Of a stretch of DNA of 64,000 nucleotides, positions 3,265 through 64,000 are shown in pieces. The stretch lies in the NCBI GenBank assembly GCA_027314025.1, contig DAHVCP010000026.1, positions 129,237 through 193,236 on the forward strand. Reading direction: 5' to 3'. The translations under genes were made by a program, and so were the position numbers. Source of the stretch: Acidobacteriota bacterium. Its GTDB lineage: Bacteria > Acidobacteriota > Terriglobia > Terriglobales > SCQP01. The first letter of the stretch is position 1; every line of letters starts with the position of its first letter. A model generated the notes under the pieces. That model was not told the DNA's origin. It ran no database searches and worked only from the letters and a program-made list of their open reading frames with translations.

Positions 3265-3665
3265 CCTGCCGCAGCTCGGCAGCCGTGGATAAGATCCTTG
3301 CCAACAGTGAGTTGCGGCATTCGCCCCGGAGGCGTTCGCATGTTTTTGTCGCCCCCTTGCGGCCATGGCGGCCACAATTTGTCAGCCGCCGCCGTGGCCC
3401 CCCTGGGCGCATGCGCCGGGCCGCGTCGGCGCCCGGCCGGATGGCGGCGCGGTCAGGAATTGTCAAGCTAACTCTCTGCTGGGGAAAGCATTTTCCCGCG
3501 ACGGCAATGGCCTTCCCGCGCTCCTCTGCCGCTTGCCCGCCACCGGCCCTCGGGGAGCTCCACGATTGAGTCTGCAAACTCTTGCATTTGTTCATCTTGG
3601 GCACGCTTCCGCCGTCCCGCAGAGGGCCCGCGGATGTTTGGCCCACTAGCTGCTCTATCGGGAGA

Positions 3666-4706
3666 ATGATGGCCACGGAACCACTCATTGCCTCGGCGGT
3701 GGGCAACCCGCTCCCTCCGGAAGAGGTCGTGTTTGGCGTCTCTCCGGCAATGGCTCCGGTCCGGCAGTTAGTCGGCAAGGCCGCCGGCGCCAACATCCCG
3801 GTGCTCATCCGCGGGGAAAGCGGGACCGGCAAGGAGATCATTGCCACCCTGCTGCATGAACAATCCCCGTGGGCCGCGGGTCCGTTGGTGAAGGTGAACT
3901 GTCCGGCGATTCCTGGTTCCCTGGTGGAGAGCGAGCTGTTTGGCTATGAGAAAGGCGCGTTTACCGGCGCCCAGGTCGCCAAGCCCGGACGCGTCGAGGC
4001 GGCGCACGGCGGCACGCTGTTTTTGGACGAAATCGGCGATCTCGACCCGTCGCTCCAGGCGAAGCTGTTGCAGCTGTTGCAGGACGGGAACTTCACTCGC
4101 ATCGGCTCAGCCAGCGATAAACATGTCGAGGTGCGAGTGGTTTGCGCCACCAACCGTCCTCTCGAGGAGGAGATGGCCGCGGGTGGTTTTCGGCGCGATC
4201 TGTACTATCGCATCAACGCCATCACGATTCATCTCCCACCCTTGCGCGAGCGCAGCGCGGATATTCCCATGCTGGTGGAATACCTCCTCGAGTACTACAC
4301 GCGCAAGTATAATCGCCAGCCCGCGCCGTTGTCGGCCTTGATCATGGGTGAGATGTGCCGCAATTCCTGGCCGGGAAATATTCGCCAGTTGGAAAACCTG
4401 ATCCGCAGATACGTGATCGTGGGCTCCGAGGATGTGATCTTGGCGGAGTTATTGAGCCGCTCCGACGATTGGGCGCTGCCCGTGCCGAACGGGTCCTGCT
4501 CGCTCAAAACCGTGACGCGCGAAGTGGTCGCCAAGGTGGAGCGGAAATTCATCCTGCGAGCGCTACAAGCGGCCAATTGGAACCGGCGTCGCGCCGCGGG
4601 AGCGCTCAATATCAGTTATCGCTCCCTGTTGTACAAGATCAAGGAGGCGGGCATTCCGCCGCACCGCAGCCCGGTGCGCAACAACGTGCAGCGCGAAGAG
4701 GCGTAG
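3666..4706 (+). CDS. Sigma-54-dependent transcriptional activator (bacterial enhancer-binding protein): AAA+ domain plus Fis-type HTH, with no N-terminal receiver or sensor domain
   Basis: Motifs are Walker A GESGTGKE, GAFTGA, Walker B LFLDEIGDL and a C-terminal HTH (AAGALNISYRSLLYKIKEAGI). Only about 50 residues precede the AAA+ core. The start was set at ATGATG 3666. Confidence 0.85.
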   Translation: MMATEPLIASAVGNPLPPEEVVFGVSPAMAPVRQLVGKAAGANIPVLIRGESGTGKEIIATLLHEQSPWAAGPLVKVNCPAIPGSLVESELFGYEKGAFTGAQVAKPGRVEAAHGGTLFLDEIGDLDPSLQAKLLQLLQDGNFTRIGSASDKHVEVRVVCATNRPLEEEMAAGGFRRDLYYRINAITIHLPPLRERSADIPMLVEYLLEYYTRKYNRQPAPLSALIMGEMCRNSWPGNIRQLENLIRRYVIVGSEDVILAELLSRSDDWALPVPNGSCSLKTVTREVVAKVERKFILRALQAANWNRRRAAGALNISYRSLLYKIKEAGIPPHRSPVRNNVQREEA

Positions 4707-4941: not shown

Positions 4942-5328
4942 CTACGGCACGACCGCGGTGGCTTGGTTGGAATAGGCGCTCTGGACGCCGCCCGAGGTCA
5001 CTGCCGCCGTCACGTAGTAGTAGGTGTTTTTCGCCTGCACCGTCTTGTCCGTGTAGGTCGTGTTCGTAATCGGCGAGCTGGTCAGCGCCTTGTAGGGTCC
5101 GCCCGACTTCGTGCTGCGGAACACCATGTAACCCGCCACGGAGGACGTGCTGGCGGCCCAGGACAGCGACACGGAATGGGTTGTCGTCGCGCCGCCGCCG
5201 TTACTGTTGCTGCTGGAAGAACTGCTGGAACTGGAGGCGAGTGACGCGGCGCCGCCGCATCCCGCCAAGCCGAGCAGCAGCGGGGCGGCAATCAGGGCAA
5301 CGGTGAGCGAACGAAGGATTCGGTTCAT
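4942..5328 (-). CDS. Small lipoprotein with a poly-Ser linker and one fibronectin type III-like domain
   Basis: The signal peptide plus lipobox is LLLGLAGC. A run SSSSSSSSSNSNGGG is followed by SVSLSWAAS...GYMVFRS...YYYVTAAV...SNQATA, an FN3-like pattern. Confidence 0.6.
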   Translation of the reverse strand: MNRILRSLTVALIAAPLLLGLAGCGGAASLASSSSSSSSSNSNGGGATTTHSVSLSWAASTSSVAGYMVFRSTKSGGPYKALTSSPITNTTYTDKTVQAKNTYYYVTAAVTSGGVQSAYSNQATAVVP

Positions 5329-6364: not shown

Positions 6365-8629
6365 TCAGTGGGCGGCCAGAATGCGCTGCGCTTCCGGGCG
6401 TTGGCGGAGCGCTGCGTTCAGCCGCACTGCGGCGGAGAGCGCAACCCGCGCCTCCCGTTTGTGGCCGTCCGCGAACAGCGCCTCGGCTAAATGGAAATGG
6501 AACATCGCGTTTTGGGGTTGCTGCTCGACCGCCGGCCGCAGGAGCGCAATGGCGCTGGCGTTCAGGTGCATTTTGAGATAGACCGTAGCCAGCGTATCGG
6601 CGACCGTGGGCACGTTCGGCAGCGCATGCAGCGCCCGCTGCGCCAGCACCATCGCTTGCGGCAGGTCACGCCCCTGTTTCGCGTAGAGATAGGCAAGATT
6701 ATTGTTCGCCACCCCGGAATCGGGCGCGATGGCCAAGGCGCGCCGGTAGTCGCGTTGCGCCTGAGCCTCGTCGCCGTTCTGCTCGGCAATCATTCCGAGC
6801 ATGGTCCATAGGCCGGCATTGTGGGGATGGCGCCGGAGCGCGGCGGCGTATTCCGCCTCCGCTGCGGACAGCTTGTGGTCTTGGGCGTAGAGGCTGGCGA
6901 GGAGCAGATAGGGCGTCAGGCTCGCGGGAGACAGCCGCACCGCGCGTTGCAGCGTTTGCTCCGCGTCCTCGGTCCGGTGTTGCCGGGCATAGAGGCTGGC
7001 GAGCAGTTCATCGAGCGGCGCGGTTTCCTGCCGGCGGACCTGGCCGCGCACCAGCTGGAGAGCGGCGCCGGGATGGCCCTGGGCAAGCTGCACGTTGGCC
7101 AGCCCAGCCACCGCCGCGGGATCGCCCGGCGCCAGCCGAAGCGCTTGCTGAAACTGCTGCTCGGCGGCCGGATAGTCCCGTCCCCGCAAGTACGCGCCGC
7201 CGAGGCGTAGGTACGGTTGAGGAAGACGGGGAGCCAGTTGCTCCGCCTGACGCCAGTCCTTGGTGGCCGCGAAATTCTGGTGCAACTGGGCTTCCGCGTC
7301 ACCTCGCACCAACCATGTCCCGGCAAATTGCGGCTGCCATGCGCTGGCCTGGGTGGCGTAGTCGAGCGCTTGGTTCGGATGGCCTTGGGCCAGCAGCAGC
7401 CGCGCCAGTGCGGCGGCGGCCAGCGCATCGCGGGGGTGGGCGCGGAGCGATCGCTGATAGGATGCGACGGCCTTCATGGGTTGGTGCAACTGGGTGTAGG
7501 CCTGTCCCAGCAGGTCATCCACCGCGGGGAGACCGGAATTGAGTTGATGCGCGGCGGTTAAGTCTTGCAGCGCCGCTTGGCTCTGGCCCAAAGCCAATTC
7601 GATCCGCGCCCGCAGCAGGCGCACCGCCGCTTGGTGGGGATGTTCTTGCGCCAACGCGTCCGCTAAGCTCCGTGCGCGGGCGGTGCGTCCCTGCGCGAAG
7701 TCAATTTCGATCCGCTGCAGGCGCGCGGGCAGAAAATTCGGCGCCGCATGCGCCAGCGCGGCATCAATCGCTTTGGCCTGCTGAGGATGCCCCTGGCTTT
7801 CCAGGAAGCGGGCCAGGGCAAAGCGCGCCGCTGGGGCGCCATGTTCCAGACGCACCACGGCGCGCAGGGCGGCCTCGGCGCGCCGCGGGTGATGCTGCTC
7901 CGCGTAGAACATGGCCAGCGTGCCGCGGGCTTGGGCGGAGCGGGGATGGGCCTGGACCGCCGCCAGCAGCTCCCGCTCCGCGGCCCCGGGATGGTGCTCG
8001 CTCAGATCCAGTCCGGCGAGCTCCCGCCGCGCCTCCAATGAGCCGGAATTGATGGCGAGCACCTGGTTCCAGGTAGCGCGCGCCCCGGCCGAATCGCCCC
8101 CCGCCAGCTCCACCGCGCCCAGCGCCAATAGTCCCGGCTGGAACCGCGGTTGGCGGGCGACCAACGCCCGCAGCAACTTCCGCGCCTCCGGCGCCTTCCC
8201 TTGCCGCGCCAGCGCCGCGGCAAGCAGGATGGTGGCATTGCCATCGCCGGGGTGCTGGGCCAGCACCGCCTGGGCGTCGGCCTGGGCCTTGGCCGTTTGC
8301 CCCGCGGCCAGTTCGATCCGTCCGGCCGCGAGCCGGGCCGCGGCGTCAGCCGGGCGCAACTGGACCGCCTGGCGATATTCTCTCAGCGCTAAGCCGAACT
8401 GCTCCTCGCGGGCGTAGGCGCGGGCCAGGCGGACGTGCAGCGCCGCGGACTGCGGCGCAATCCGCAGTGCGTTGCGGAGTTCGATGACGGCGGCGGCATA
8501 CCGCCCGCTCCGCATGTCGGCGCGGGCTTGCGCCCGGAAGTGGGCTTCCCGCTGGGCGGGGCTGCTGCATCCGGCAGCGGCGGTGAGGAGAACCGCCGCC
8601 GCGGCGAGAAAAAGGAGATGGCGTTTCAT
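6365..8629 (-). CDS. prsT: PEP-CTERM-system TPR-repeat lipoprotein (PrsT-like)
   Basis: The start was reset to MKRHLLFLAAAAVLLTAAAGCSS (lipobox). The remaining roughly 730 aa are TPR repeats throughout. Its ATG overlaps the exosortase stop (ATGA at 8626-8629). Confidence 0.7.
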   Translation of the reverse strand: MKRHLLFLAAAAVLLTAAAGCSSPAQREAHFRAQARADMRSGRYAAAVIELRNALRIAPQSAALHVRLARAYAREEQFGLALREYRQAVQLRPADAAARLAAGRIELAAGQTAKAQADAQAVLAQHPGDGNATILLAAALARQGKAPEARKLLRALVARQPRFQPGLLALGAVELAGGDSAGARATWNQVLAINSGSLEARRELAGLDLSEHHPGAAERELLAAVQAHPRSAQARGTLAMFYAEQHHPRRAEAALRAVVRLEHGAPAARFALARFLESQGHPQQAKAIDAALAHAAPNFLPARLQRIEIDFAQGRTARARSLADALAQEHPHQAAVRLLRARIELALGQSQAALQDLTAAHQLNSGLPAVDDLLGQAYTQLHQPMKAVASYQRSLRAHPRDALAAAALARLLLAQGHPNQALDYATQASAWQPQFAGTWLVRGDAEAQLHQNFAATKDWRQAEQLAPRLPQPYLRLGGAYLRGRDYPAAEQQFQQALRLAPGDPAAVAGLANVQLAQGHPGAALQLVRGQVRRQETAPLDELLASLYARQHRTEDAEQTLQRAVRLSPASLTPYLLLASLYAQDHKLSAAEAEYAAALRRHPHNAGLWTMLGMIAEQNGDEAQAQRDYRRALAIAPDSGVANNNLAYLYAKQGRDLPQAMVLAQRALHALPNVPTVADTLATVYLKMHLNASAIALLRPAVEQQPQNAMFHFHLAEALFADGHKREARVALSAAVRLNAALRQRPEAQRILAAH

Positions 8630-9576
8630 ACGGGCTCGTGAGGTTCGAGGCGCGCGGCGCCCGGCGGCGGTTCCAGTGTGCGCCGCGATTGTTCTCCGCG
8701 CCGCAGCCAAAGCAAGAGCGGCCACAGCAGAACTAAGGCGATCAGGAAGAAGACAAAGCCGCCCTCCCGGTGCAACCGGCCGTAGAGAAAGCCGCGATTC
8801 ACATGCAAAGCCAGCAGGCAGAGGGTGCAGATGCGGATCGCGTTCTTCACCGCCGAAAAGGGAATCGCGACCAGCACCAGTACGGCGCGGCGCCAAGGCG
8901 AGCGCAAATAGAAATATCCAGCCAACAGGGCGGTGATGGCCAGGGCTTGGCTGGAGCGGATGCTGCTGCATTCCTTGGCGACGTGGATCGTAATGGTGGG
9001 AATAAAGAGGTCAAACCCTTGCCGGAAGACCGGCACGCCCAAGACGCCGAAGAACCAGGCGCACATGTGCGTCGAGCCCGCTTGTAGCCAAAAGATGGAA
9101 CGGTCGAGCAGAAATGGCGGAAACGGGATGATGAGCAGAAGAAACAGCCAGGCAAACAGCCCGGCCTGGAAGACCCGGCGGCCGTATATGGCGCAGACCC
9201 CGGCAAAAAGAAACAGCACCAGGCTGAGGGCGAGCAGGCTCAGGTGATCGGCATACGGCACCCGCCCCGCCCATCCCAGGGCCCAGCCCAGGCTCAGGGC
9301 GCCAACGGCGGCGAAACTCGCCGCCGCCAGCCGGTCGCGGCCAGGGTGCGCGAAGATGGATCGCCGCTCGGTCCACAGCAGGTAAATGGAGACGAACGGA
9401 ATCAGGGGAATGTAGGAACAAAAATCGTTGCCCAGGGCGAAGGCCAGCAGTTCGCGCAGGGGCTGCGCGAATAGGGCCAGCAGCGCCGCGAAATAAATTA
9501 TCAGGGCGCGGCGCCGCCGCGGGTCTGCGGCGGTGCTGGCGCGGGAGGCGGAAGGGGTTTCAGTGGCGGGGTTCAC
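8626..9576 (-). CDS. Exosortase (EpsH/Xrt family transpeptidase); subtype not assigned
   Basis: A polytopic membrane protein with the exosortase active-site region VAKECSSIRS and a downstream NAIRI...LHV. GTG at 9576 was chosen as the start; the ORF-track N-terminus is Arg/Pro-rich junk overlapping the upstream gene. Confidence 0.75.
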   Translation of the reverse strand: MNPATETPSASRASTAADPRRRRALIIYFAALLALFAQPLRELLAFALGNDFCSYIPLIPFVSIYLLWTERRSIFAHPGRDRLAAASFAAVGALSLGWALGWAGRVPYADHLSLLALSLVLFLFAGVCAIYGRRVFQAGLFAWLFLLLIIPFPPFLLDRSIFWLQAGSTHMCAWFFGVLGVPVFRQGFDLFIPTITIHVAKECSSIRSSQALAITALLAGYFYLRSPWRRAVLVLVAIPFSAVKNAIRICTLCLLALHVNRGFLYGRLHREGGFVFFLIALVLLWPLLLWLRRGEQSRRTLEPPPGAARLEPHEPV

Positions 9577-24359: not shown

Positions 24360-25927
24360 GCTTCTCTCCAATTGTCTCCCGCCAGGGTCTCGGCAGGAAT
24401 CCGGGGGTGAGCCGCCGCGTCGCCGCCGGCAGCGGCGGCGGCCGGCGCGGCCCGGGCGTCCCGCGGGAGCGAGGGCGGCGGCAGCAAGCGGCGATGCAAG
24501 GCGGCCAGGGCGCCGGGCAGGTCCGATTGCTGCACGGCAATGCCGATGACGCGCGGTTCGGCGGAGACGCCGGAGGCGAGGTAGGCGACGCCGGCATCGC
24601 GCAGGGCGGCGATGGCGCGGGCATGAATGTCCTCGACGGCGGGACCGCCGACCCCCGCGACCAACGCCACGCCGGGGACCAGGCGCAAGCGCGGATCGCC
24701 GGGCGGCAGGCGCAGCGCCCAGCGCCAAACGGCGAGAACCGCCGCGGCCTGCGCATCGGGCACGGCGATTTGGAGGATGCCCTCCCGCGGGAGGAAGCGA
24801 AAGGCGACGGCGTCATTGGCCAGGGCGGGCCAGGCCCGCGCCTGGAGCCGAGCGCGTGCGTCGCCGGTGGGATCGCGATAGGCCACGATGGCAAGATTGG
24901 AACGCGCGGCCAGGGCGAATGGGCCCGCCACCGCACCGGGGCGGGGCGATGCGGTCGCGGCGGCGGCGACTTGGGTGCCCGGGCGCTCGGGGCGAAAGGT
25001 GTTGCGAATCGAGAGCGGGATGCCGGCGGCGCGGGCGGGCTCCAGGCAGTTCGGGTGCAGGACCTTGGCTCCGGCCCGGGCCAGGAGGGCGGCGTCCTGA
25101 TAGGACAACGCGGGGAGGACCTGGGCGGCGGGAACCAGGCGGGGATCGGCGTCGTGGACGCCATCCACATCGGTCCAGATGACGGCTTCGCGGGCGTGCA
25201 TGCAGGCGGCGATGAGGGTGGCGGAATAATCCGATCCGCCGCGGCCCAAGGTGGCGGGGGCGGCGTCGTGGCGGCGGCAGATGAAGCCGGTGACCACGGG
25301 CAAGACGCCGCGTTGGAGCAGGGGGCGGAGGCGGGCGCGGCAACGGGCGGTGGAATGCGCCATGTCGGGCTCGCCCGCGGGGTTCAGGCTGATGAGTTCG
25401 GTGGCGGCGATGGCCTGGCTCCGGCGGCCGGAGGCGGCCAGTGCGGAGGCCAGCAATGGGGCGGCGAGGCGCTCGCCGAGGCCCGTGATTTCGTCGGACG
25501 CTCCCGGGGAGGAACGGGAACCGGCGAGATCGCGGCAGAGCGCCTCGGCTTCCGCCACCAGGGCGGCGGCGTGGGCGGCGTAGGCGCGATGGACGGGCGG
25601 GGGCAACAGCTCGGCGGCGACGGCGTCATGCCGGGCGCGCAACGCCTGCAGAATCTTCACGGCTGACCTGGTTTGGCCGCGGGCGGCGTCGGCGGCGCAG
25701 GCCACCAGCTGGTCGGTGGCGCCGGCGAGGGCGGAAACCACCACGATCAGTGGGGCGGGGTCATCCGTGCCGGTGACGATGGCGACCACGTGGCGGAGAC
25801 AGGCGGCGTCGGCGACCGATGTGCCACCGAACTTCATGACGACGGGGCTGGCGGTGAGGCGAGGAAGGGCAAAGGACCGCCGGGACAGGGGTACCTTTTC
25901 GCCCGAATTGTTCCCGTTCTGCTGCAT
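24356..25927 (-). CDS. Aspartate kinase with C-terminal ACT-like region
   Basis: Motifs are KFGGTSV, TLGRGGSDYSA, IWTDVDGV and AKVLHP. The start is uncertain: ATG 25927 (MQQNGNN) or ATG 25837 (MKFGGTSV). Confidence 0.8.
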   Translation of the reverse strand: MQQNGNNSGEKVPLSRRSFALPRLTASPVVMKFGGTSVADAACLRHVVAIVTGTDDPAPLIVVVSALAGATDQLVACAADAARGQTRSAVKILQALRARHDAVAAELLPPPVHRAYAAHAAALVAEAEALCRDLAGSRSSPGASDEITGLGERLAAPLLASALAASGRRSQAIAATELISLNPAGEPDMAHSTARCRARLRPLLQRGVLPVVTGFICRRHDAAPATLGRGGSDYSATLIAACMHAREAVIWTDVDGVHDADPRLVPAAQVLPALSYQDAALLARAGAKVLHPNCLEPARAAGIPLSIRNTFRPERPGTQVAAAATASPRPGAVAGPFALAARSNLAIVAYRDPTGDARARLQARAWPALANDAVAFRFLPREGILQIAVPDAQAAAVLAVWRWALRLPPGDPRLRLVPGVALVAGVGGPAVEDIHARAIAALRDAGVAYLASGVSAEPRVIGIAVQQSDLPGALAALHRRLLPPPSLPRDARAAPAAAAAGGDAAAHPRIPAETLAGDNWREA

Positions 25928-25944
25928 GTGCCGCGGCCGCGAAA

Positions 25945-25959
25945 GCAAAGCGCCCCCCA
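25945..25959 (-). promoter_or_regulatory. Weak sigma-54 promoter candidate upstream of the aspartate kinase gene
   Basis: The minus strand reads TGGGGG-GCGCT-TTGCT with correct spacing. It is only compatible with the downstream start (25837), because it sits about 18 nt from the ATG at 25927. Confidence 0.3.
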
Positions 25960-26121
25960 TGGTTCGCCCCTTGGCGCGGCCAAGGGGTGGCATGGGCAAG
26001 CGATTTCTAATCTTGGGCTTTGGGAAGCACATCAAGGGCCAAATGGCCAGGTCTTGGCCGGGGCGGCGCGCGGGCGGGGCCTGGGGGGCGGACCGGGCCC
26101 CGGTCCCGCCCACGCGCCCAG

Positions 26122-26140
26122 CGGGGCTGGGGCCCGCGCC
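26122..26140 (+). repeat. REP-like GC-rich repeat, partial copy A
   Basis: CGGGGCTGGGGCCCGCGCC, identical to the 3' 19 nt of copies B and C. Confidence 0.6.
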
Positions 26141-26156
26141 AGGGAAAAGCCGGACG

Positions 26157-26187
26157 CCCCGCCGCAGGCGGGGCTGGGGCCCGCGCC
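26157..26187 (+). repeat. REP-like GC-rich palindromic repeat, copy B
   Basis: CCCCGCC-GCAG-GCGGGG-CTGGGGCCCGCGCC (31 nt), a hairpin plus tail. It is identical to copy C. Confidence 0.65.
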
Positions 26188-26363
26188 AGGAAATTTTCAG
26201 GCTCGGCTACCGATGGGCGGCGGTGCGGCGCGGCGAGGTGCTGCAAGGTTTTGCAGACAGCGGGAAGGCATTGGGCCACCCAACGGGGGCGGGAAAGCCG
26301 GGGGCCGCAGGCCCAGCCCGGCGCGTAAGCGGCGCTCCGCGCCGCGCCAATTAAAGCGGGACA

Positions 26364-26426: not shown

Positions 26427-27707
26427 TTAGGGTTTGGCCGAACCGTCGAGCAGGGCGAGATACAAGGCGGCGAGGGCGGAGAGCATGGTCGCCTGGCCCC
26501 AATGGAGCGTGGGGGTGCGGTTGACGATGCGTCGGGAATAGCGGCGGTAATAGAAATAGCCGGAGCGGTCCTGCATGTTGGCGATGGTCCAGCGGGCGAC
26601 GCGGAGGGCGAGATCCAGGGCCTGCGGGTCACGGTCGGAGAAATACACCAGCGTGTCTATGGCCTGCGAGGCGCATTGGATGTCGAGGGGCAGCGTCTTG
26701 TTGTGGTAATAACGCGGCGTTCCGTCGGGCAGGAAAAATGTTGCCTTCCAATATGCGTAGCCGCGCTCGAGCTGGGGAGCGAAGGATGGGTCGCCGGTGG
26801 CGTCGGCGTAATGGCGCAGGGAATCCAGGACGTAGGCGGTGTGGAAGCTGTCAATCCAGTGGACGATTTCCGCTTCGCCGTAGTACCAGGCGCCGTCGGG
26901 AAGCTGGCGCTCGGCGGAGTACATGGCGGCGCGGCGGGCCAGATCGCGCAGCGCTTCCTCGCCGGTTTCGCGATAGGTTTCGGCGAGCAGGGCGGCGCCG
27001 AGGACGTTGGCGTTATGCACCTGGCATTCCGTGCCGACGATGTAGTTGATGCAGACCGCCTCGCCATGGGGATGGCGGGCGAGGTCGAGCTGGATGTGGC
27101 GGCAGGCGCTGACGGCGGCGTCGAGGTAACGGCGGTCGCCCAACTGGCGGTAGCCATCGAGGAAGGACAGGCCGATGAGCGAGGTCCAGACGATGGTGGG
27201 CGCGCCCTTGGGGAGATAGAAGCCGCGCGACTGATAGTCGAAGTGGTTGCCCCAGCAGACGCCGGAGTAGCCGGGGGAGGGATGGTCGAGGAGCCAGTCC
27301 AGGGCGGCGCGGGCTTCGGATTCCCAAGCTTCCCGTTCCGCGGCCTCGTGGGCGGCGGCGGCGAGGCGGAGATAGCCGCGCGCGATGAAGGCCTGGCCCT
27401 TGGTGGAACGGCTTTTGGGGATGCCGAGGAGAGGGCGAATGTTGAGGGGGAAGCGGCGGACGGCCTGCTGCAAGATCTGGCGGGGCAGCTTGCGCTCGAA
27501 GGTCAGCGGCCGCAGGTACCAGGCGCTGAGGCCGTCAAAGGTATCGTAGGCGGCGTAGTCGTGGGCGCGGAGCCAGGCGATGAGGCGGTCCAGGGACGCC
27601 CGGATTTCGGGCGCGGCGGACGTTCCGGCGGATTGGGGGCCGGGGGCTGCGGCGTGGGCCGGCGCCGCCGGCGCGGGCCGCGCGGTGGTATCCGTATTTT
27701 GCGTCAT
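26427..27707 (-). CDS. Probable (alpha/alpha)6-barrel protein of unknown function (glycoside-hydrolase or epimerase-like)
   Basis: A soluble protein of about 425 aa, rich in W/Y/H repeats (CWGNHFDYQSRGFY, DGAWYYGE, HWIDSFHTAYV, SGYFYYRRY), which is typical of six-hairpin folds. The family was not recognised. The start is ATG 27707, with TTG 27806 as an alternative. Confidence 0.35.
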   Translation of the reverse strand: MTQNTDTTARPAPAAPAHAAAPGPQSAGTSAAPEIRASLDRLIAWLRAHDYAAYDTFDGLSAWYLRPLTFERKLPRQILQQAVRRFPLNIRPLLGIPKSRSTKGQAFIARGYLRLAAAAHEAAEREAWESEARAALDWLLDHPSPGYSGVCWGNHFDYQSRGFYLPKGAPTIVWTSLIGLSFLDGYRQLGDRRYLDAAVSACRHIQLDLARHPHGEAVCINYIVGTECQVHNANVLGAALLAETYRETGEEALRDLARRAAMYSAERQLPDGAWYYGEAEIVHWIDSFHTAYVLDSLRHYADATGDPSFAPQLERGYAYWKATFFLPDGTPRYYHNKTLPLDIQCASQAIDTLVYFSDRDPQALDLALRVARWTIANMQDRSGYFYYRRYSRRIVNRTPTLHWGQATMLSALAALYLALLDGSAKP

Positions 27708-27802
27708 ATGAGAATTTTGCCCTCCGGGCTCCGCAGTCCCACAATGATGGGAACTCTCTCCGCCTGGGAGCGCCGGCGTCCCGCCGGCCTGCTCCGCCTC
27801 TC

Positions 27803-28768
27803 TCAACTCCGCCCGTCCTCCTCCGTCCCGGCCGCCAATCCTAGCTTGGCACGCAGGCGGGCCATGTCCTCCCGGCGGCGAAAGGCGACAAGCTCCCGCG
27901 AGATAGGCCGCGGGGCGCGGCTGAGGGCGCCGCCCAGATATCCGGCACCGATGGCCAGCCCGCCGAGGCCGAACGGCGGCTTGGTCATCTGGTAGGCGAC
28001 ACGAAACGCCTCCCAGAGGGGATGACAGCCGAGGGCATGGTCTTTCTTGCCCATGCGGTAGCGCGCCTGGAGGCGGCGGCTTTCCGCCGTGCCCATGCGG
28101 CGGTGATGAATGACGCGAACGTCCTCGAAGGTGCGGGTTTTCCAGCCGGCGGCACGGGCCTTGAGCACGGCGACGTAGTCAATGCCGCCGCCGGCGATGG
28201 GCTCGTATCCGCCGATTTGCTCGAAGCAGTCGCGGCGGAAGAGCTGGCAGCCGCCCCAGACTCCGGCGGCGCTGGTATAGCGGTAATCGTAGAGCTGGCG
28301 GCCGCCCTCGCTGAAGGCCGGGCCGGCGACACCAAGGGCGGGGTCGGCGGCAAAACGGGCCAGCAGCGCGGCCAGGTCGCCGGGGGCGAGGGAGACGTCG
28401 GCGTCCAGGTTGCCGATGACGTCGTACTCCAAGCCCCGCACGCGCTCCATGCCGGCGTCGAAGGCCCGCACCTTGGCGGCGAAGTCGCGGCCCTGGCGGG
28501 ACGGCATTTGCGCCACCTCGATCCACGGATAGCGGGCGGCGTAACGGGAGGCAAGTTCGGCGGTGCCGTCGGTCGAGGCGTCGTCCACGACGATCCATTT
28601 CAAGGGCGGGACGGCCTGGCGGGACATGGACTCCAGGGTCTTTTCGATCTGCGCCGCCTCATTGCGGGCGGGGGTCACGAGGACGTACTGGGGCATTTTG
28701 GTCTGAGAGGGAACTTTTGGGGCAACCCCGCTGGGGTCGGGTGACATCTTAGTGCTCGTGATTGCCAT
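27803..28768 (-). CDS. GT2 glycosyltransferase
   Basis: Motifs are VLVTPARNE, WIVVDDASTDGT and IGNLDADV. Several in-frame ATGs exist (28768, 28747, 28696). Confidence 0.8.
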   Translation of the reverse strand: MAITSTKMSPDPSGVAPKVPSQTKMPQYVLVTPARNEAAQIEKTLESMSRQAVPPLKWIVVDDASTDGTAELASRYAARYPWIEVAQMPSRQGRDFAAKVRAFDAGMERVRGLEYDVIGNLDADVSLAPGDLAALLARFAADPALGVAGPAFSEGGRQLYDYRYTSAAGVWGGCQLFRRDCFEQIGGYEPIAGGGIDYVAVLKARAAGWKTRTFEDVRVIHHRRMGTAESRRLQARYRMGKKDHALGCHPLWEAFRVAYQMTKPPFGLGGLAIGAGYLGGALSRAPRPISRELVAFRRREDMARLRAKLGLAAGTEEDGRS

Positions 28769-28823
28769 TGTCGTCAGTGGCGGGTCAGGCGCGGGCTGAT
28801 CGGGTCCGACTCTCCGGATTCAC

Positions 28824-28838
28824 GCAATTTTTGTGCCA
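28824..28838 (-). promoter_or_regulatory. Sigma-54 (-24/-12) promoter, consensus match, driving the GT2 operon
   Basis: The minus strand reads TGGCAC-AAAAA-TTGCG, a perfect TGGCAC-N5-TTGC. It lies 56 nt upstream of the ATG at 28768. Confidence 0.7.
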
Positions 28839-29071
28839 AATTGGGACGGGGTTGGCGCCGGTCTGGCGCGGGCCCCGGCGCAGTTGCGCCACGCGCTCCT
28901 CCCTGTGGGCAGGCTTTCCGCAGCCTGGGGCCGCATCTGGGCTGCGGATTGGAACGAGAGTTGGGGACGGGTTGGTGTGCGGATGCTGACGGTCGAACTT
29001 GGGTTAGAGCCCCCACATTTTCAGCGGTTTGGCTGTCCCGGCGGGCAAAGGCCTGGCCAATTGGGCAGAAA

Positions 29072-29092
29072 CATGCCAGCCCGGGCGGCATG
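29072..29092. promoter_or_regulatory. Near-perfect 21-nt palindrome CATGCC-A-GCCCGGGC-G-GCATG about 90-110 nt upstream of the 29181 promoter; possible UAS
   Basis: Seen directly in the sequence. A T8 tract (29121-29128) lies between it and the promoter. Confidence 0.25.
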
Positions 29093-29180
29093 ACTCCGAG
29101 AAGACCATCGCACCAGGCGATTTTTTTTGCTGCGTAGTGCAATCCTCTGGCTGTAGGGGGGACTCATGTTGGTAAAGTAT

Positions 29181-29195
29181 TGGCAATCAGTTTGC
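29181..29195 (+). promoter_or_regulatory. Sigma-54 (-24/-12) promoter driving the secreted beta-helix protein gene
   Basis: TGGCAA-TCAGT-TTGCG on the plus strand, about 115 nt upstream of the ATG at 29310. It is divergent from the 28824-28838 promoter. Confidence 0.65.
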
Positions 29196-29309
29196 GCCCA
29201 GGCCCTGGACAGCAATGGGGCCGCGCTCGCGCCGCTTGCAAGAAATGCGCACCGGCAGGGGGAGTTGGGGGCCGGAGTGCGCCGCGGTTGGAGAGGGGAG
29301 AAGAAACTG

Positions 29310-31235
29310 ATGAAACAGCGTGCCGTTCCGCCACTGATCTTTTGCCTTGCCGCCGTGCTTGCGCTGGCCGCCAGCGCCCCCGTGCGGGCCCATGCCCAGA
29401 CCACGCCCCCTTGGACCGGCATTCTCGCGCCCAGCCGGGCGATTGACTGGTCGCAGGCGGGGGTGCCGGGCGGCATTCCGGCGCGGACCACCGTTTGCGC
29501 TTCGATCGCGCCGGAGGGCTCCTCCACGGCGCCGGTGGCGCCGGCGGACGTCAACGCCGCGATCGCGAGCTGCCCCGCGGGCGAAGTCGTGTATCTCCAG
29601 CCGGGGAATTTCTACTTTTCCAGCGGCATTGATTTCGCCAACCACAGCGACGTGACGCTGCGTGGGGCGGGCGCGGATCAGACGTTTCTTTACTTTTACG
29701 GTGATGCGTCCTGCGACGGCATGCAGGCGGACGTCTGCATCGAGAACGGGACGAACACCTGGGGCGGCAACAACGCGACCATCGCGAACTGGACGGCGGG
29801 CTATGCTCCGGGGACGACGCAGATCACGCTGGACAACACATCCGGCATCGTGCCTGGCAAAACGCTGCTAATCCTGGATCAGTTGAACGACTCGAACACC
29901 GACAACGGCGGCCTTTGGATCAACGATACCAACGGCGTCGCCGAGGACGACAACCCGAGCAACGGATATCGCCCCGGCCGGGCGCAGGGACAGGTCGTGC
30001 TGGCCACCGCCGTCAGCGGGAGCACGGTGACGATCTCGCCGGGGATTTACATGCCGAACTGGAGATCCTCGCAATCCCCACAGGCCTGGTGGTCCACGCC
30101 AGCGGTCACCGGGGACGGGGTCGAGGACCTGTCCATGGACAACAGCCACAGCAATGGGAATGCGATTGTCGTCGACAGCGGCTACAGCGATTGGGTCAGC
30201 GGGGTCCGGAGCTATCAGGAGGGCGGCATCCAGCACGTCCTGCTTTACCAATCTGCCCACTGCACCATCCAGAGCTCCTACTTTTATGGGACACCGAACG
30301 CGATCACGGAGAGCTACGGGTATGACGAGGTGATAAGCTCCGATGACCTCATTGCGAACAACATTTTCCAGCACATTGCCAGCCCCATTGTCGTCGACGG
30401 CTCCAGCAGCGGTACTGTCGCCGCCTACAATTACGCCCTAGACGATTATTTCGGCGGGGCCTCCTCGAATTGGATGGCGATAGCGTTCGAGCCCCACTCG
30501 GCGGGGATCGATTTCGAGCTGTTCGAGGGCAACGTCGGGGACGGCTTTGGCGCCGACGACATTCACGGGACGGGTAATCTCTGGACGCTCTTCCGGAACC
30601 GCCTTTATGGCTTTGATCCGCCCGACCCGGGCCGTACCAACGACACCATCGCGGTAACGGTGGACAGCTTTCACCGCTTCATGAACGTGGTCGGAAACGT
30701 CCTTGGCGATTCAGGGGTGACGACGACTTACCAGATCGTGGCGCCCGCCGGTGGTAACCAGGACATGATGGACGAGGCCTACAACCTGGGCTGGAGCAAT
30801 TGGGCGGGTTGGCCCACGCAGGATTCGGTGACCGCCTCGACGCTGTTCCGATGGGGCAACTACGACGTGGTGAACAACGCAGCGGAATGGAATCCGCTGG
30901 AGGTTCCCAGCAGCCTTGCCCAGTTGGCGAACCCGGTCCCGACGACGGAGGCTTTGCCCGCATCCTTCTTTCTTGCTTCGAAGCCGGCTTGGTGGATAAC
31001 GCCTTGGGGCACGCCGCCGTGGCCGGCGATTGGGCCCGACGTGACCGGCGGGACGGACGCCTCTGCGAATGGCCATGCGAACGCGATCCCAGCGCAGCTT
31101 TGCTACGAAAACAGCCCGGATGACCAGAACTATCCGCAGGACCAGTCAGGTCTGTACGTGAAGGTATTCAATGCCGGCGGCTGCTATGGCAAGCCGCCAG
31201 CGGCGCCGACGGGCCTAACGGCGACAGTGCAATAA
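29310..31235 (+). CDS. Secreted protein, probably a right-handed beta-helix polysaccharide lyase/hydrolase-like enzyme
   Basis: The start was reset to MKQRAVPPLIFCLAAVLALAASAPVRAHA (signal peptide; RBS GGAGAGGGGAG upstream). The body has repetitive N/G/D/T-rich beta-strand-like segments. The fold call is tentative. Confidence 0.4.
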   Translation: MKQRAVPPLIFCLAAVLALAASAPVRAHAQTTPPWTGILAPSRAIDWSQAGVPGGIPARTTVCASIAPEGSSTAPVAPADVNAAIASCPAGEVVYLQPGNFYFSSGIDFANHSDVTLRGAGADQTFLYFYGDASCDGMQADVCIENGTNTWGGNNATIANWTAGYAPGTTQITLDNTSGIVPGKTLLILDQLNDSNTDNGGLWINDTNGVAEDDNPSNGYRPGRAQGQVVLATAVSGSTVTISPGIYMPNWRSSQSPQAWWSTPAVTGDGVEDLSMDNSHSNGNAIVVDSGYSDWVSGVRSYQEGGIQHVLLYQSAHCTIQSSYFYGTPNAITESYGYDEVISSDDLIANNIFQHIASPIVVDGSSSGTVAAYNYALDDYFGGASSNWMAIAFEPHSAGIDFELFEGNVGDGFGADDIHGTGNLWTLFRNRLYGFDPPDPGRTNDTIAVTVDSFHRFMNVVGNVLGDSGVTTTYQIVAPAGGNQDMMDEAYNLGWSNWAGWPTQDSVTASTLFRWGNYDVVNNAAEWNPLEVPSSLAQLANPVPTTEALPASFFLASKPAWWITPWGTPPWPAIGPDVTGGTDASANGHANAIPAQLCYENSPDDQNYPQDQSGLYVKVFNAGGCYGKPPAAPTGLTATVQ

Positions 31236-33913: not shown

Positions 33914-34674
33914 GCGTGGCAGACGGGGACGTAATCGCTGTGGCGCTCGCCGGACATTGGCGTGCGCAGGGGGCAGTCCGGGGTGGGCCAGCGGGTGCGG
34001 TCCTCGTAAACGAATGGCTGGTGGATGGCGGGGAAGTCGGCCGAACCGAAGACGTCCACGCGGCTGAAGACGGCGCGGTATTTCTCGAAGTAATCCACGC
34101 CAGGGGCGCGGACATGGCCGGATTCCCGGGGATTCGGCGCGGGATATTCCACGGTTTTCGCGCAGACGACCGGCACGGGCAGGACCGCCATGCCGCCGGG
34201 CCTGAGCACGCGGCGGATCTCAGCGATGGCCCTGCGATCGTCCGGGACGTGTTCCAGGACGTGCGAGGCGAAGACGAAATCGTAGGTTGCGTCGGGAAAC
34301 GGCAGGTTTTGGATGTCGGCGCGGTGGTCCACGTCCTTCATCCCGATGTCGGCGGTCTCATAGCGGCCGAAGCGGGCCGAGAGCCTGCGGCGAAAGAATT
34401 TCTCCGGGGCGAAATGAAGCATGCGCATGCTCTTGGTGTCGCGGCCGTCAAGGGAGCGGGCCAGGGCGAGATGCTGCAACCGATGCCGTTCCAGCGCGCC
34501 ACAGCGGGGGCATTGCGCGTGCCAGCGGCGGCCGGCGAAATGTTCGAAATCGGCGAACGGTCCGCGATAGGCGCAGATCGGGCATTGGAAGCGCGGTTTC
34601 CGCGGGTGGAGCAGGCGGAACACCGGCGCCGGGGGCTTCGCCCGTTCTTTTATTATCCTAAGCGCTCGTGGCAT
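33910..34674 (-). CDS. Class I SAM-dependent methyltransferase
   Basis: FDFVFASHVLEHVPDDRRAIAEIRRVLRPGGMAVLPVP. An N-terminal Cys pair region (CPICAY...CPRCG) is zinc-ribbon-like. Confidence 0.7.
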   Translation of the reverse strand: MPRALRIIKERAKPPAPVFRLLHPRKPRFQCPICAYRGPFADFEHFAGRRWHAQCPRCGALERHRLQHLALARSLDGRDTKSMRMLHFAPEKFFRRRLSARFGRYETADIGMKDVDHRADIQNLPFPDATYDFVFASHVLEHVPDDRRAIAEIRRVLRPGGMAVLPVPVVCAKTVEYPAPNPRESGHVRAPGVDYFEKYRAVFSRVDVFGSADFPAIHQPFVYEDRTRWPTPDCPLRTPMSGERHSDYVPVCHA

Positions 34675-49730: not shown

Positions 49731-50205
49731 GTGACTCCCCTCTCATTGCTCCAGCAGGCTGCCGGCGGCCGCGGGCGCGGCTGGGCAGCGTGATCGGCGC
49801 AGTGGCTTCATTCGACGGCGAGCTTAGCGAGCCGTCGGCGGCCACCGCGCGAACCACGTAGTAGTAGGTGTGATCGCGCTGGACGGCGCGGTCTTCATAA
49901 CAGGTTGCGGGAATGGGCGTCGGGTTGAGCAGCTGCTTGGCGCCGGTGGGCGATTCCGCCCGGTAGACGTTGTAGCCCATCAAATTTGGCGAGTGACTGG
50001 GTTGCCAGGTCAGCTCGACATGGGGCTTGGACGGATGCGCCGAGGGAGCCGGCTGGGTTCCGGGCGCGGGGCAGGGCGGATGGGCCGGGGCCGCGGCAAC
50101 GGCCGGTCGCGGCGAAGCGCCGGGGTTATCCGCGCGGAGATTGGCTGATCCAGTCATAGTCATGAGCACCACACCCACGCACGCCCATTGGCACCGGTTC
50201 CGCAT
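49693..50205 (-). CDS. Small fibronectin type III-like domain protein, paralogue of the 4942-5328 product
   Basis: VELTWQPS...GYNVYRA...YYYVVRAVAADGSLSSPSNEATA is the same pattern as 4942-5328. The signal peptide is weak and the start is uncertain. The 3' end overlaps the next gene by 38 nt. Confidence 0.5.
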   Translation of the reverse strand: MRNRCQWACVGVVLMTMTGSANLRADNPGASPRPAVAAAPAHPPCPAPGTQPAPSAHPSKPHVELTWQPSHSPNLMGYNVYRAESPTGAKQLLNPTPIPATCYEDRAVQRDHTYYYVVRAVAADGSLSSPSNEATAPITLPSRARGRRQPAGAMRGESHVHHGTNAAAKR

Positions 50206-51024: not shown

Positions 51025-51141
51025 CCGCTTACAGCCCGTACACCTTCTCGCTCCGCATCGCGCCGAGCGCGTTGCGGGTGTCCACGATGCGCGGCGCCAG
51101 CGCCGCTGCACTCGGGACCTGCAAAACCTTGCGGCGAGGAC

Positions 51142-54092: not shown

Positions 54093-54108
54093 GTGCAAGT
54101 GTTTGCAC
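54093..54108. promoter_or_regulatory. Perfect inverted repeat GTGCAA-GTGT-TTGCAC about 110-125 nt upstream of the 54217 promoter; candidate enhancer (UAS)
   Basis: Seen directly in the sequence. An AT-rich stretch (54150-54180) lies between it and the promoter, as expected for a bend or IHF region. Confidence 0.35.
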
Positions 54109-54216
54109 TCTTTCGGTGCCGCACGCGGTTTCGCCACCCAGGGAATAGGGGCATCATTCGCTATTAACTCATTCGTTATCAGCGCGCCGATGAATTGCGC
54201 ATCGCGATTGCCGATT

Positions 54217-54232
54217 TGGTACTGTACTTGCA
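54217..54232 (+). promoter_or_regulatory. Sigma-54 (-24/-12) promoter driving the PEP-CTERM protein gene
   Basis: TGGTAC-TGTAC-TTGCAT on the plus strand, about 60 nt upstream of the ATG at 54292. Confidence 0.7.
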
Positions 54233-54291: not shown

Positions 54292-54642
54292 ATGCTCAAA
54301 CGTTTCCCCCCCTTTACCCAAGCCGTTGCCCTCGCTGCTTTCTTGGCCCTTGCGATGGGGTTGAGCGCTCGTCCGGCTTGGGCGGGCACGATTACCAGTC
54401 CGACACAGGTGAGCTTCAGCCAGACGAACGCCTATGGCATGGGCAACTTCAACCTGTATTCGGGCAGCTTGTATCAAACGGGCACGGATCTTAGCTCGAA
54501 TACCTTCAGCGTCACCGATGGCGCGTACAGCCCGGCGGCGCAGCCGGTGTCGGCTCCGGAGCCGGCGAGTTGGCTGCTGTTGGCGGCAGGACTTGGCGCG
54601 CTGGGATTGGCCGCGCGGCGCCGCCGCGTTTCCTGGCCCTGA
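54292..54642 (+). CDS. Small secreted PEP-CTERM-anchored protein (exosortase substrate)
   Basis: The signal peptide ends ARPAWA. A mature region of about 57 aa is Ser/Thr/Gly/Asn-rich. The C-terminal sorting signal is VSAPEPASWLLLAAGLGALGLAARRRR (PEP motif, TM helix, Arg cluster). RBS GGGAG lies 12 nt upstream. Confidence 0.85.
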   Translation: MLKRFPPFTQAVALAAFLALAMGLSARPAWAGTITSPTQVSFSQTNAYGMGNFNLYSGSLYQTGTDLSSNTFSVTDGAYSPAAQPVSAPEPASWLLLAAGLGALGLAARRRRVSWP

Positions 54643-59719: not shown

Positions 59720-59822
59720 CTGGATGGAACACGCCAGAAGTAAAGTCATTCCGGGTTATCAGCCGGGGCGGCCACTCAAAAGCTAAACTCGGCGGGCAGC
59801 TCGATCGCCCGCTGGGGAGTTC

Positions 59823-61346
<1,524 letters not shown>

Positions 61347-61498
61347 AGAGAACGTGGCGCGATCTCCGCCTCGGCGGAGAACGTTCGCGTCCACACCGTC
61401 CCGGCCTCTCTGGGCCCGGACCATGGCTTACTTTCACCCCTCCGCCCTCGGCGGAGCGGCGTGTTCCTCCATCCTCGAATCCTTTTGTGGCCGCCCGC

Positions 61499-61574
61499 GG
61501 GGCTGTAGCTCAGTTGGGAGAGCGCCTGATTTGCATTCAGGAGGCCGTCGGTTCGATCCCGATCAGCTCCACCA
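61499..61574 (+). tRNA. tRNA-Ala (anticodon UGC), CCA encoded
   Basis: Cloverleaf folded by hand. The acceptor stem GGGGCUG/CAGCUCC carries the G3:U70 identity pair. The anticodon loop is UUUGCAU and the T-loop is UUCGAUC. Confidence 0.9.
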
Positions 61575-61614
61575 GTTTGGCGCCGGGATCTCCGCTCCAC
61601 CCGCCCGCGCCCGC

Positions 61615-61691
61615 GGGCCTGTAGCTCAGATGGCTAGAGCGCACCCCTGATAAGGGTGAGGTCGGTAGTTCGATTCTACCCAGGCCCACCA
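61615..61691 (+). tRNA. tRNA-Ile (anticodon GAU), CCA encoded
   Basis: Cloverleaf folded by hand. The acceptor stem is GGGCCUG/CAGGCCC, the anticodon loop is CUGAUAA and the T-loop is UUCGAUU. Confidence 0.9.
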
Positions 61692-61766
61692 CCCGCGCTT
61701 CGCCGCCACCCACCGGATTCGTCCCGCCCTCGGCGGGACCGCTCGCGCCCCAGGGCGCGGCGCATC

Positions 61767-61778
61767 GCTGTTTGACAA
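61767..61778 (+). promoter_or_regulatory. Spacer boxA-like antitermination element upstream of 23S
   Basis: GCTGTTTGACAA, identical to the leader copy at 59708-59719. Confidence 0.55.
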
Positions 61779-61901
61779 CCGAATGATTGCAAGTGATTGG
61801 GCAAAACCAAGTTCCCTTCCGGCCGAAAACCGCCGGAAGGAAAGCGCGAATGGATGAAGGATCCAAATCCCCGGAACCGATGAGGCCCCGGGTGAATTTG
61901 T

Positions 61902-64000
<2,099 letters not shown>

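Follow-up and report, generated by a model that had tools for sequence, protein, structure and literature searches.

The window, a 64,000-nucleotide stretch of DNA from an Acidobacteriota bacterium (contig DAHVCP010000026.1), has a GC content of 68% and carries a PEP-CTERM-type exopolysaccharide (EPS) locus of Acidobacteriota, Terriglobales-like character; the nearest relatives of its proteins are encoded in metagenome-assembled genomes labelled Acidobacteria or Terriglobales. The locus encodes a Wzx flippase, several GT4 and GT2 enzymes, a priming transferase, a FemAB-like protein, a chain-length determinant and a tyrosine kinase of the XrtA-associated type, an UpxY/NusG-like antiterminator, a PrsT-type TPR protein (6365-8971; TIGR02917 score 325.3, above the NCBIfam cut-off of 312.2) and a small PEP-CTERM protein (54292-54642). 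The subject of this report is a 541-bp spacer between two divergent genes of the locus, one for a family 2 glycosyltransferase (GT2) on the minus strand and the other for a secreted right-handed beta-helix protein on the plus strand (Table 1). A preliminary description, made from the sequence alone, placed in this spacer a pair of back-to-back sigma-54 promoters which, through a shared enhancer region, would tie EPS synthesis and a putative EPS-cleaving enzyme to the same activator.

The divergent layout is retained in the relatives L091, L093, L001, L094/95 and L097. The GT2 gene starts at ATG 28768; its N-terminal MAIT... is kept in L001, whose counterpart of the internal ATG reads TTG. The second gene of the GT2 operon lacks Pfam and NCBIfam matches as well as hydrophobic segments, and a gene without a Pfam match occupies the same position in L091, L093 and L094. 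An early guess that it is Wzy-like was ruled out by the lack of transmembrane segments.

Table 1. Genes, promoter-like sites and repeats of the window that are considered in the text; coordinates are window positions.
Feature	Coordinates	Strand	Remarks
Sigma-54 enhancer-binding protein (EBP) gene	3666-4706	+	AAA+ domain with GAFTGA and Fis-type helix-turn-helix; Pfam PF00158 (7e-65), PF02954
Sigma-54-like site and upstream palindrome ahead of aspartokinase-like gene	26026-26256	-	TGGCCC-TTGAT-GTGCT (26026-26041); CTGCAA-N4-TTGCAG (26241-26256); comparator
Second gene of GT2 operon	26427-27806	-	459-aa open reading frame (ORF); soluble protein of unknown family; start overlaps GT2 stop by 4 nt
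GT2 glycosyltransferase gene	27803-28768	-	Pfam PF00535, 9.6e-21; first gene after minus-strand promoter
Probable sigma-54 (-24/-12) promoter of GT2 operon	28823-28838	-	TGGCAC-AAAAA-TTGCG, TGGCACAAAAATTGCG; top matrix score in window, and conserved
Direct repeats and inverted repeat	28841-28975	+	TTGGGACGGGGTTGG (28841-28855), TTGGGGACGGGTTGG (28961-28975); 8-bp arms (28918-28947); weak candidates at best
Copy of dispersed REP-like (repetitive extragenic palindrome) element	28857-28895	+	CTGGCGCGGGCCCC (14-mer, 28863-28876) and hairpin; contains palindrome 28877-28890
Conserved island	29030-29083		Palindrome CTGGCC-AATT-GGGCAG (29053-29068), third half-site TGCCAG (29074-29079); identity 0.57-0.73
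Highly conserved non-coding block	29114-29309	+	T-tract, ~45 nt upstream of -10-like element, and ~125-nt leader
T8 tract	29121-29128	+	T-rich tract kept in all close relatives
Extended -10-like element (TGnTAnnnT)	29170-29178	+	TGGTAAAGT; invariant TGGTAnAGT in 11/11 aligned sequences, down to 61% protein identity
Sigma-54-like site	29181-29196	+	TGGCAA-TCAGT-TTGCG, TGGCAATCAGTTTGCG; lineage-specific, doubtful function; matrix rank 6
Secreted right-handed beta-helix protein gene	29310-31235	+	641 aa; signal-peptide-like N-terminus
Predicted sigma-54 promoter of PEP-CTERM gene	54093-54232	+	GTGCAA-GTGT-TTGCAC (54093-54108); TGGTAC-TGTAC-TTGCA (54217-54232); gene 54292-54642; comparator of textbook form

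Candidate promoters are ranked here with a sigma-54 position weight matrix (PWM) that is our own approximation from the published consensus rather than a published matrix, and the comparison with relatives is anchored on the beta-helix protein, with orthologous spacers taken from relatives at 94, 83, 82, 76, 76, 74, 64, 62 and 61% protein identity. The minus-strand site, intergenic and oriented toward GT2, has no mismatch to TGGCACNNNNNTTGC, with GG and GC exactly 10 nt apart. With the GT2 start at ATG 28768, its -12 element lies ~55 nt upstream of the gene, much as the preliminary description had it; that description also gave the sequence and its perfect core correctly, with coordinates one base short of the true span. 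A score as high as that of this site, the best in the 64-kb window, is reached on one given strand in 0.6% of simulated 541-nt regions of the same composition.

Conservation singles out the same elements. The aligned versions are TTTGGCACAAAAATTGCG in the window, TTTGGCATCCAACTTGCT in L091, TTTGGCATAAAAATTGCT in L093, TTTGGCACCCAAATTGCG in L001, TTTGGCTGTTGGATTGCA in L097 and TTTAGCACGCCAATTGCA in L094: in the pattern TTTGGCA..N5..TTGC, the TTGC is kept in all six lineages and the GG in five, the sixth (L094) reading TAGCAC. The distance to the GT2 start stays within 53-57 nt in the window, L091, L093, L001 and L097, and the L094 leader is longer. Around these elements the spacer varies freely and the surrounding alignment averages ~38% identity; a working -24/-12 promoter should leave just such a footprint, its -24 and -12 elements retained while spacer and flanks drift. 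The minus-strand site is thus probably a real sigma-54 promoter of the GT2 operon, as first proposed. From the motif we infer a transcription start near 28812 and a 5' untranslated region of ~44 nt.

The plus-strand site fares differently. The match itself, TGGCAATCAGTTTGC at 29181-29195, is present as first described, ~115 nt before the beta-helix start codon at 29310, with one mismatch to TGGCAC-N5-TTGC and GG and GC again exactly 10 nt apart. A sigma-54 promoter needs its GG, and here this dinucleotide (29182-29183) is confined to the window, L094/95 and L003/L099. Its place is taken by CC in L091/92, L093, L001 and L098, by CT in L096/97 and by CG in L101, so that GG is missing from 6 of the 11 aligned relatives, including the four closest lineages. 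The CC is seen in four independent assemblies and is therefore no sequencing error. Unlike the minus-strand spacer, the AATCAG of the spacer is invariant among close relatives, as are TTGC and the CC that follows, and the -24 dinucleotide is the variable spot within an otherwise invariant stretch of ~60 nt. Since the spacer and TTGC are equally invariant in relatives without GG, their conservation cannot be credited to sigma-54. We propose that the plus-strand match is due to a GG where the closest relatives carry CC, and that something other than sigma-54 use keeps TTGC and the spacer constant. As a divergent pair of sigma-54 promoters, the arrangement is accordingly not borne out by the relatives, in which only the minus-strand site is conserved.

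What is conserved on this side is a much larger block, reaching from the T-tract to the beta-helix start. In a sliding comparison of five relatives its identity mostly falls between 0.7 and 0.98, and at the sigma-54-like site and upstream of it between 0.83 and 0.98, compared with 0.2-0.5 in the rest of the spacer; close relatives show no indels in it, and it is unique to the upstream region of the beta-helix gene. An identity of 83-98% at and upstream of the plus-strand site exceeds what a -24/-12 promoter needs. The beta-helix gene must also be expressed where GG is missing, and the CC lineages showed no other sigma-54-like site upstream of it, which argues for a promoter of a non-sigma-54 type. 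The most likely candidate is TGGTAAAGT as an extended -10 promoter, with a start at C-1/A+1 near 29185 (C 29184 and A 29186 are invariant in the block), in which case the T-tract would lie at about -60. The T8 tract, already listed in the preliminary description and now seen to be conserved, may act as an UP-like or bending element.

Two other interpretations of the block were discarded. A terminator-like hairpin at 29107-29128 has a stem that is not conserved in relatives. An upstream in-frame ATG at 29166, used as the start in one database entry, opens a reading frame that is non-coding by its substitution pattern: by our count from the alignment, codon positions 1/2/3 carry 3/9/6 changes, each altered codon specifies a different residue and third-position GC is low, and the signal peptide and Shine-Dalgarno sequence support 29310 instead. 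The window has two leader changes of its own, one of which makes CTTGCAAG within gcttgcaag (29226-29234).

The centre of the spacer is mostly poorly conserved, with indels. All of the structured elements listed in the preliminary description are present where it placed them; most, though, are lineage-specific or belong to a dispersed REP-like repeat. The direct and inverted repeats at 28841-28975 survive in L091 only in part and are missing or changed in L093 and L001, and neither the palindromes at 28877-28890 and 28918-28947 nor the near-palindrome at 29072-29092 is kept in relatives. For the REP-like 14-mer the window has 4 copies where 0.42 would be expected; the further copies are at 26129-26142, 26176-26189 and ~26385, and a GC-rich hairpin, sometimes with a T-run, follows.

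The single conserved stretch of the central spacer is the island at 29030-29083. Its palindrome, CTGGCC-N4-GGGCAG, is kept in L091, L094 and L093, and reads CTGTCC-GGTG-GGACAG in L001, a symmetric change. The island is the best candidate in the spacer for a regulator or enhancer site, as judged by its conservation; measured from the palindrome centre, the GG of the plus-strand site is ~120 nt away and that of the minus-strand site ~225 nt. A second minus-strand sigma-54 match here, TGGCCAGGCCTTTGCC (29044-29059), was rejected: its spacing is broken in L094, L093 and L097, and the match probably just reflects the conserved palindrome.

An activator that could act on such sites is encoded in the window, as the preliminary description noted: the EBP gene 3666-4706 is the only sigma-54 activator gene there, and no paralog was found in the window. 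The protein has no N-terminal regulatory domain, with ~20, at most ~50, residues before the AAA+ domain. Its orthologs sit in EPS/exosortase loci; e.g., in L103 the EBP gene adjoins an exosortase gene (PF09721) and heads a chain-length/kinase/priming-transferase operon. The EBP belongs to a very large family of ~350-aa Terriglobales proteins, and a small lipoprotein with an FN3-like repeat adjoins its gene in all three contexts seen (window 4942-5328, L102 and L103).

A different palindrome, TGCAA-N4-TTGCA, recurs across the locus. With 1.08 expected, the window has 4 copies (3573-3586, 26242-26255, 51120-51133 and 54094-54107), each of them intergenic. One precedes the EBP gene by 80 nt, the palindrome being found also upstream of the EBP orthologs of L102 and L103, and another is upstream of the UpxY-like gene. 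The copy at the PEP-CTERM gene stands ~110 nt upstream of a sigma-54 promoter sequence, TGGTACTGTACTTGCA, which in turn is 60 nt upstream of ORF 54292 within a spacer of ~790 bp; the -24/-12 elements and the palindrome are kept in L106, L104 and L105, the last with a symmetric compensatory change. At the aspartokinase-like gene, the sigma-54-like site and the palindrome are both kept in L001, with a different palindrome spacer; the two REP-like copies between them in the window (26129-26190) are absent from the homologous L001 spacer. From gene content and motif distribution, the EBP is plausibly the regulator of the locus and TGCAA-N4-TTGCA is probably its operator or enhancer site. The palindrome is absent from the GT2/beta-helix spacer and its orthologs, where only a conserved half-site, GTGCAA (29138-29143), is found, and the proposed link between the EBP and this fragment is therefore unsupported, if still possible.

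The aspartokinase-like gene (MKFGGTSV...), which belongs to the EPS cluster, has, in addition, a highly conserved leader of ~190 nt after the sigma-54-like site; the region concerned is 25832-26256 on the minus strand of the window and 740-1044 in L001. The leader could be a regulatory RNA; it has no match in Rfam.

We favour, with modest confidence, a reading in which divergent control from the 541-bp spacer is asymmetric, sigma-54-dependent leftward and non-sigma-54 rightward. Motifs, gene content and conservation patterns are observations; the transcription starts, the sigma factor in use, the activator and the leader's role are predictions. On the left, the promoter at 28823-28838 would drive the operon of the GT2 and soluble-protein genes: sigma-54 RNA polymerase would wait as a closed complex at TGGCA(C/T)-N5-TTGC and fire only once an ATP-hydrolysing EBP, bound upstream, made contact via DNA looping, the CTGGCC-N4-GGGCAG island being the best candidate for the EBP site. 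On the right, most relatives would transcribe the beta-helix gene from the conserved non-sigma-54 promoter, most likely the extended -10 element, into an RNA with a conserved leader of ~125 nt whose 5' end is able to pair across the start codon.

Several points weigh against this arrangement. The island, the best candidate for an activator site, is rather far from the minus-strand promoter; no -35 match was found for the extended -10 element, and we know of no promoter rules for acidobacteria by which to judge it. Others concern the plus-strand site, which is of good quality and even better in its L094 version, TGGCAATCAGTTTGCA, and which has a conserved palindrome upstream with a T-tract between, resembling the PEP-CTERM sigma-54 promoter. 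In the protein tree, moreover, the window is nested inside the CC clade, so that GG was probably ancestral, then lost and then regained in the window lineage; such a return, by two neighbouring changes where the sequence is otherwise frozen, hints at selection for a sigma-54 site here.

The points on the plus-strand site feed the alternative that survives best, which we regard as possible though doubtful: both sites are functional sigma-54 promoters in this strain and share an enhancer at 29030-29083, so that the GT2 operon and the depolymerase are coupled to one activator, and sigma-54 control of the latter gene would have disappeared in the closest, CC-bearing relatives. GG-N10-GC spacing is right at both sites, as are their orientation and their distance from the start codons, and two such oriented sites are unlikely to meet by chance in one 541-nt region (joint chance ~2e-4). 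Sigma-54-like sites scoring at least 10.5 with the PWM also lie upstream of some distant acidobacterial homologs, 6 in the forward and 0 in the reverse orientation; the six include an archaeal one and a pair related to each other. The plus-strand site by itself is not compelling: its score is reached on one given strand in 2.8% of the simulated regions, and it would fail multiple testing. The absence of GG from most relatives despite an invariant spacer and TTGC, the invariant -10-like element just upstream and the lack of TGCAA-N4-TTGCA from the region likewise tell against shared sigma-54 control. That the plus-strand site works as a sigma-54 promoter in the window strain thus seems to us a sizeable possibility, short of an expectation.

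It is very unlikely, in our view, that the block 29114-29309 is a structured cis-regulatory RNA leader, riboswitch-like or protein-binding, with TTGC and the spacer kept as RNA and transcription starting further upstream. Very high non-coding conservation free of indels would suit such a leader, as would an invariant 8-bp complementarity between AUCAGUUU (29186-29193) and AAACUGAU (29304-29311) over the start codon and a predicted hairpin, GCGCACCGGC...GCCGGAGUGCGC. The region, however, has no match in Rfam at E values up to 1, none of 32 predicted leader pairs has a compensatory change, the fold is no better than that of shuffled sequence (z-score -0.24), and the block was not found upstream of homologs at 51% protein identity or less. 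The pairing across the start codon is one candidate cause of the conservation of TTGC and spacer, albeit a weak idea.

Least probable of all is that neither site is used, both being chance matches in a GC-rich spacer with other promoters serving the two genes: the motif is indeed not significantly enriched in the window (9 matches to TGGCAC-N5-TTGC with at most one mismatch, against 5.8 expected), and high-scoring matches also occur within genes and in 16S rRNA (60303-60318), but the minus-strand -24/-12 elements are conserved across the six lineages compared amid variable sequence, their distance to the ATG is constant, and the locus holds an EBP gene and other conserved sigma-54 promoters. 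The 16S match, one of the best in the window and located in the conserved region around position 515, illustrates the false-positive rate of the sigma-54 motif. PWM matches at 34509, 44835 and 3249 were discarded as promoters, all lying within genes, and that at 50189 for being on the wrong strand. The rRNA operon occupies the end of the window (59822-64000), beginning with 16S (59822-61341), followed by two tRNAs (61499-61688) and, from 61902 onward, by 23S, which reaches the window end.

Compared with sigma-54 -24/-12 promoters and their EBPs in general, the minus-strand site has the expected features, i.e., GG-N10-GC spacing, a conserved TGGCAC-N5-TTGC core and a GAFTGA-containing EBP encoded nearby, whereas the plus-strand site fails the test of conservation. 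EBPs without a regulatory domain form the class of PspF and HrpR/HrpS. The EBP of the locus resembles them in starting ~20 residues before the AAA+ domain, so that it would not be switched by a sensor domain of its own; unlike in that class, no partner anti-activator was identified for it, the FN3-like lipoprotein being its constant neighbour.

Divergent sigma-54 promoter pairs, called uncommon in the preliminary description, are already known. The divergently transcribed hyc and hyp operons are one example. These adjacent operons are tabled as FhlA-dependent, and the zraP/zraSR pair, under the single activator ZraR, is established (PMC4987338). The spacer studied here resembles the zraP/zraSR type in having two candidate -24/-12 sites back to back, separated by ~340 bp in which a conserved palindrome is found; it differs in that only one of the two sites is conserved and the enhancer that they would share is a candidate.

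The PrsK-PrsR-PrsT (Prs) regulon, with a sigma-54 motif upstream of PEP-CTERM genes, has been predicted for Proteobacteria only, where the sigma-54 motif is preceded, at a distance of 30-90 nt, by a motif 1 containing TTTACA (Haft et al., 2006; PMC1569441). In Aquincola, sigma-54 control was confirmed for one gene, and the EPS biosynthesis genes are seemingly not RpoN-regulated (PMC9850573). The present locus is similar in being an EPS locus with a PrsT above its cut-off, a sigma-54 activator gene near prsT, and a PEP-CTERM gene preceded by a large spacer with a sigma-54 motif and an upstream palindrome. It differs in phylum, in its upstream element (GTGCAA-N4-TTGCAC instead of the TTTACA motif 1) and in its activator, which has no receiver domain, scores 290 against the PrsR model (TIGR02915; cut-off 502.6) and aligns only from model position 141. 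PrsK was not seen among the ORFs scanned in the window. A further difference, in this case from Aquincola, is the predicted sigma-54 promoter of a glycosyltransferase operon.

The beta-helix protein itself has no Pfam or NCBIfam match, and sequence and profile searches of the PDB gave no meaningful match; among its homologs, PF13229 is matched in 13 of 24 and PF12708 in 10 of 24. An AlphaFold (AF2) model of moderate confidence (pLDDT 61, pTM 0.73) is closest in the PDB to 7w1c, the Klebsiella K1 capsule lyase (E 9e-12), and to tailspike depolymerases of phages, while the Vibrio matrix lyase RbmB ranks lower with a weaker match; the Foldseek probability is 1.0 to 7w1c, 4ru4 and 8bke, with TM-scores of only 0.3-0.4. 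A secreted beta-helix protein, as the preliminary description had it, thus agrees with both the signal-peptide-like N-terminus and the predicted fold, and its proposed EPS-cleaving activity is fair at the fold level; by its model, the protein is a probable polysaccharide depolymerase. Matrix depolymerases are encoded in biosynthesis clusters elsewhere, e.g., PslG, PelA and AlgL. Like RbmB of Vibrio cholerae, the protein is a secreted beta-helix protein of lyase-like predicted fold encoded inside an EPS cluster; it differs from RbmB-type depolymerases in lacking detectable sequence similarity to solved structures.

Homologs of the beta-helix protein at ~42% identity are found in Thermoplasmata and Methanobacteriota contigs (L004-L009, L013, L014 and many metagenome loci), which suggests transfer between soil bacteria and archaea. 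Elsewhere in the EPS cluster, the segment 9620-20882 holds genes for the handling of amino acids and acyl groups. They encode a homoserine O-succinyltransferase, a Cys/Met pyridoxal-phosphate enzyme, a FemAB-like protein, an AMP-ligase, a flavin oxidoreductase, an ATP-grasp enzyme and a carrier-protein/thioesterase-like product. This gene set hints at a polysaccharide decorated with amino acids or acyl groups.

Taken as a whole, the earlier interpretation is partly supported: one well-supported sigma-54 promoter faces GT2, and the other site is a lineage-specific match overlapping a promoter/leader block. The divergent-pair idea is known in kind and half supported, and its value is that of a useful annotation rather than a surprise. 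A broader and more speculative reading, which we consider somewhat improbable, is that Terriglobales EPS/PEP-CTERM loci have a sigma-54 regulon of their own, in which a receiver-less activator acts on TGCAA-N4-TTGCA and the depolymerase promoter toggles between GG (competent) and CC (blind) in close strains. The regulon may then include the activator's own gene and the PEP-CTERM, aspartokinase-like and UpxY-like genes, and the window strain may have regained sigma-54 input atop a constitutive-type promoter. If this is true, Prs-type control extends past Proteobacteria and into biosynthetic operons.

Acidobacteria are abundant in soil and, to our knowledge, almost nothing is known experimentally about their transcription or matrix regulation. 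The conserved sigma-54 promoters of the GT2 operon, the PEP-CTERM gene and the aspartokinase-like gene would offer a concrete, testable entry to acidobacterial regulation. They would also show that a second phylum has, with different parts, its own version of the link between sigma-54 and PEP-CTERM systems that has been described in Proteobacteria alone.

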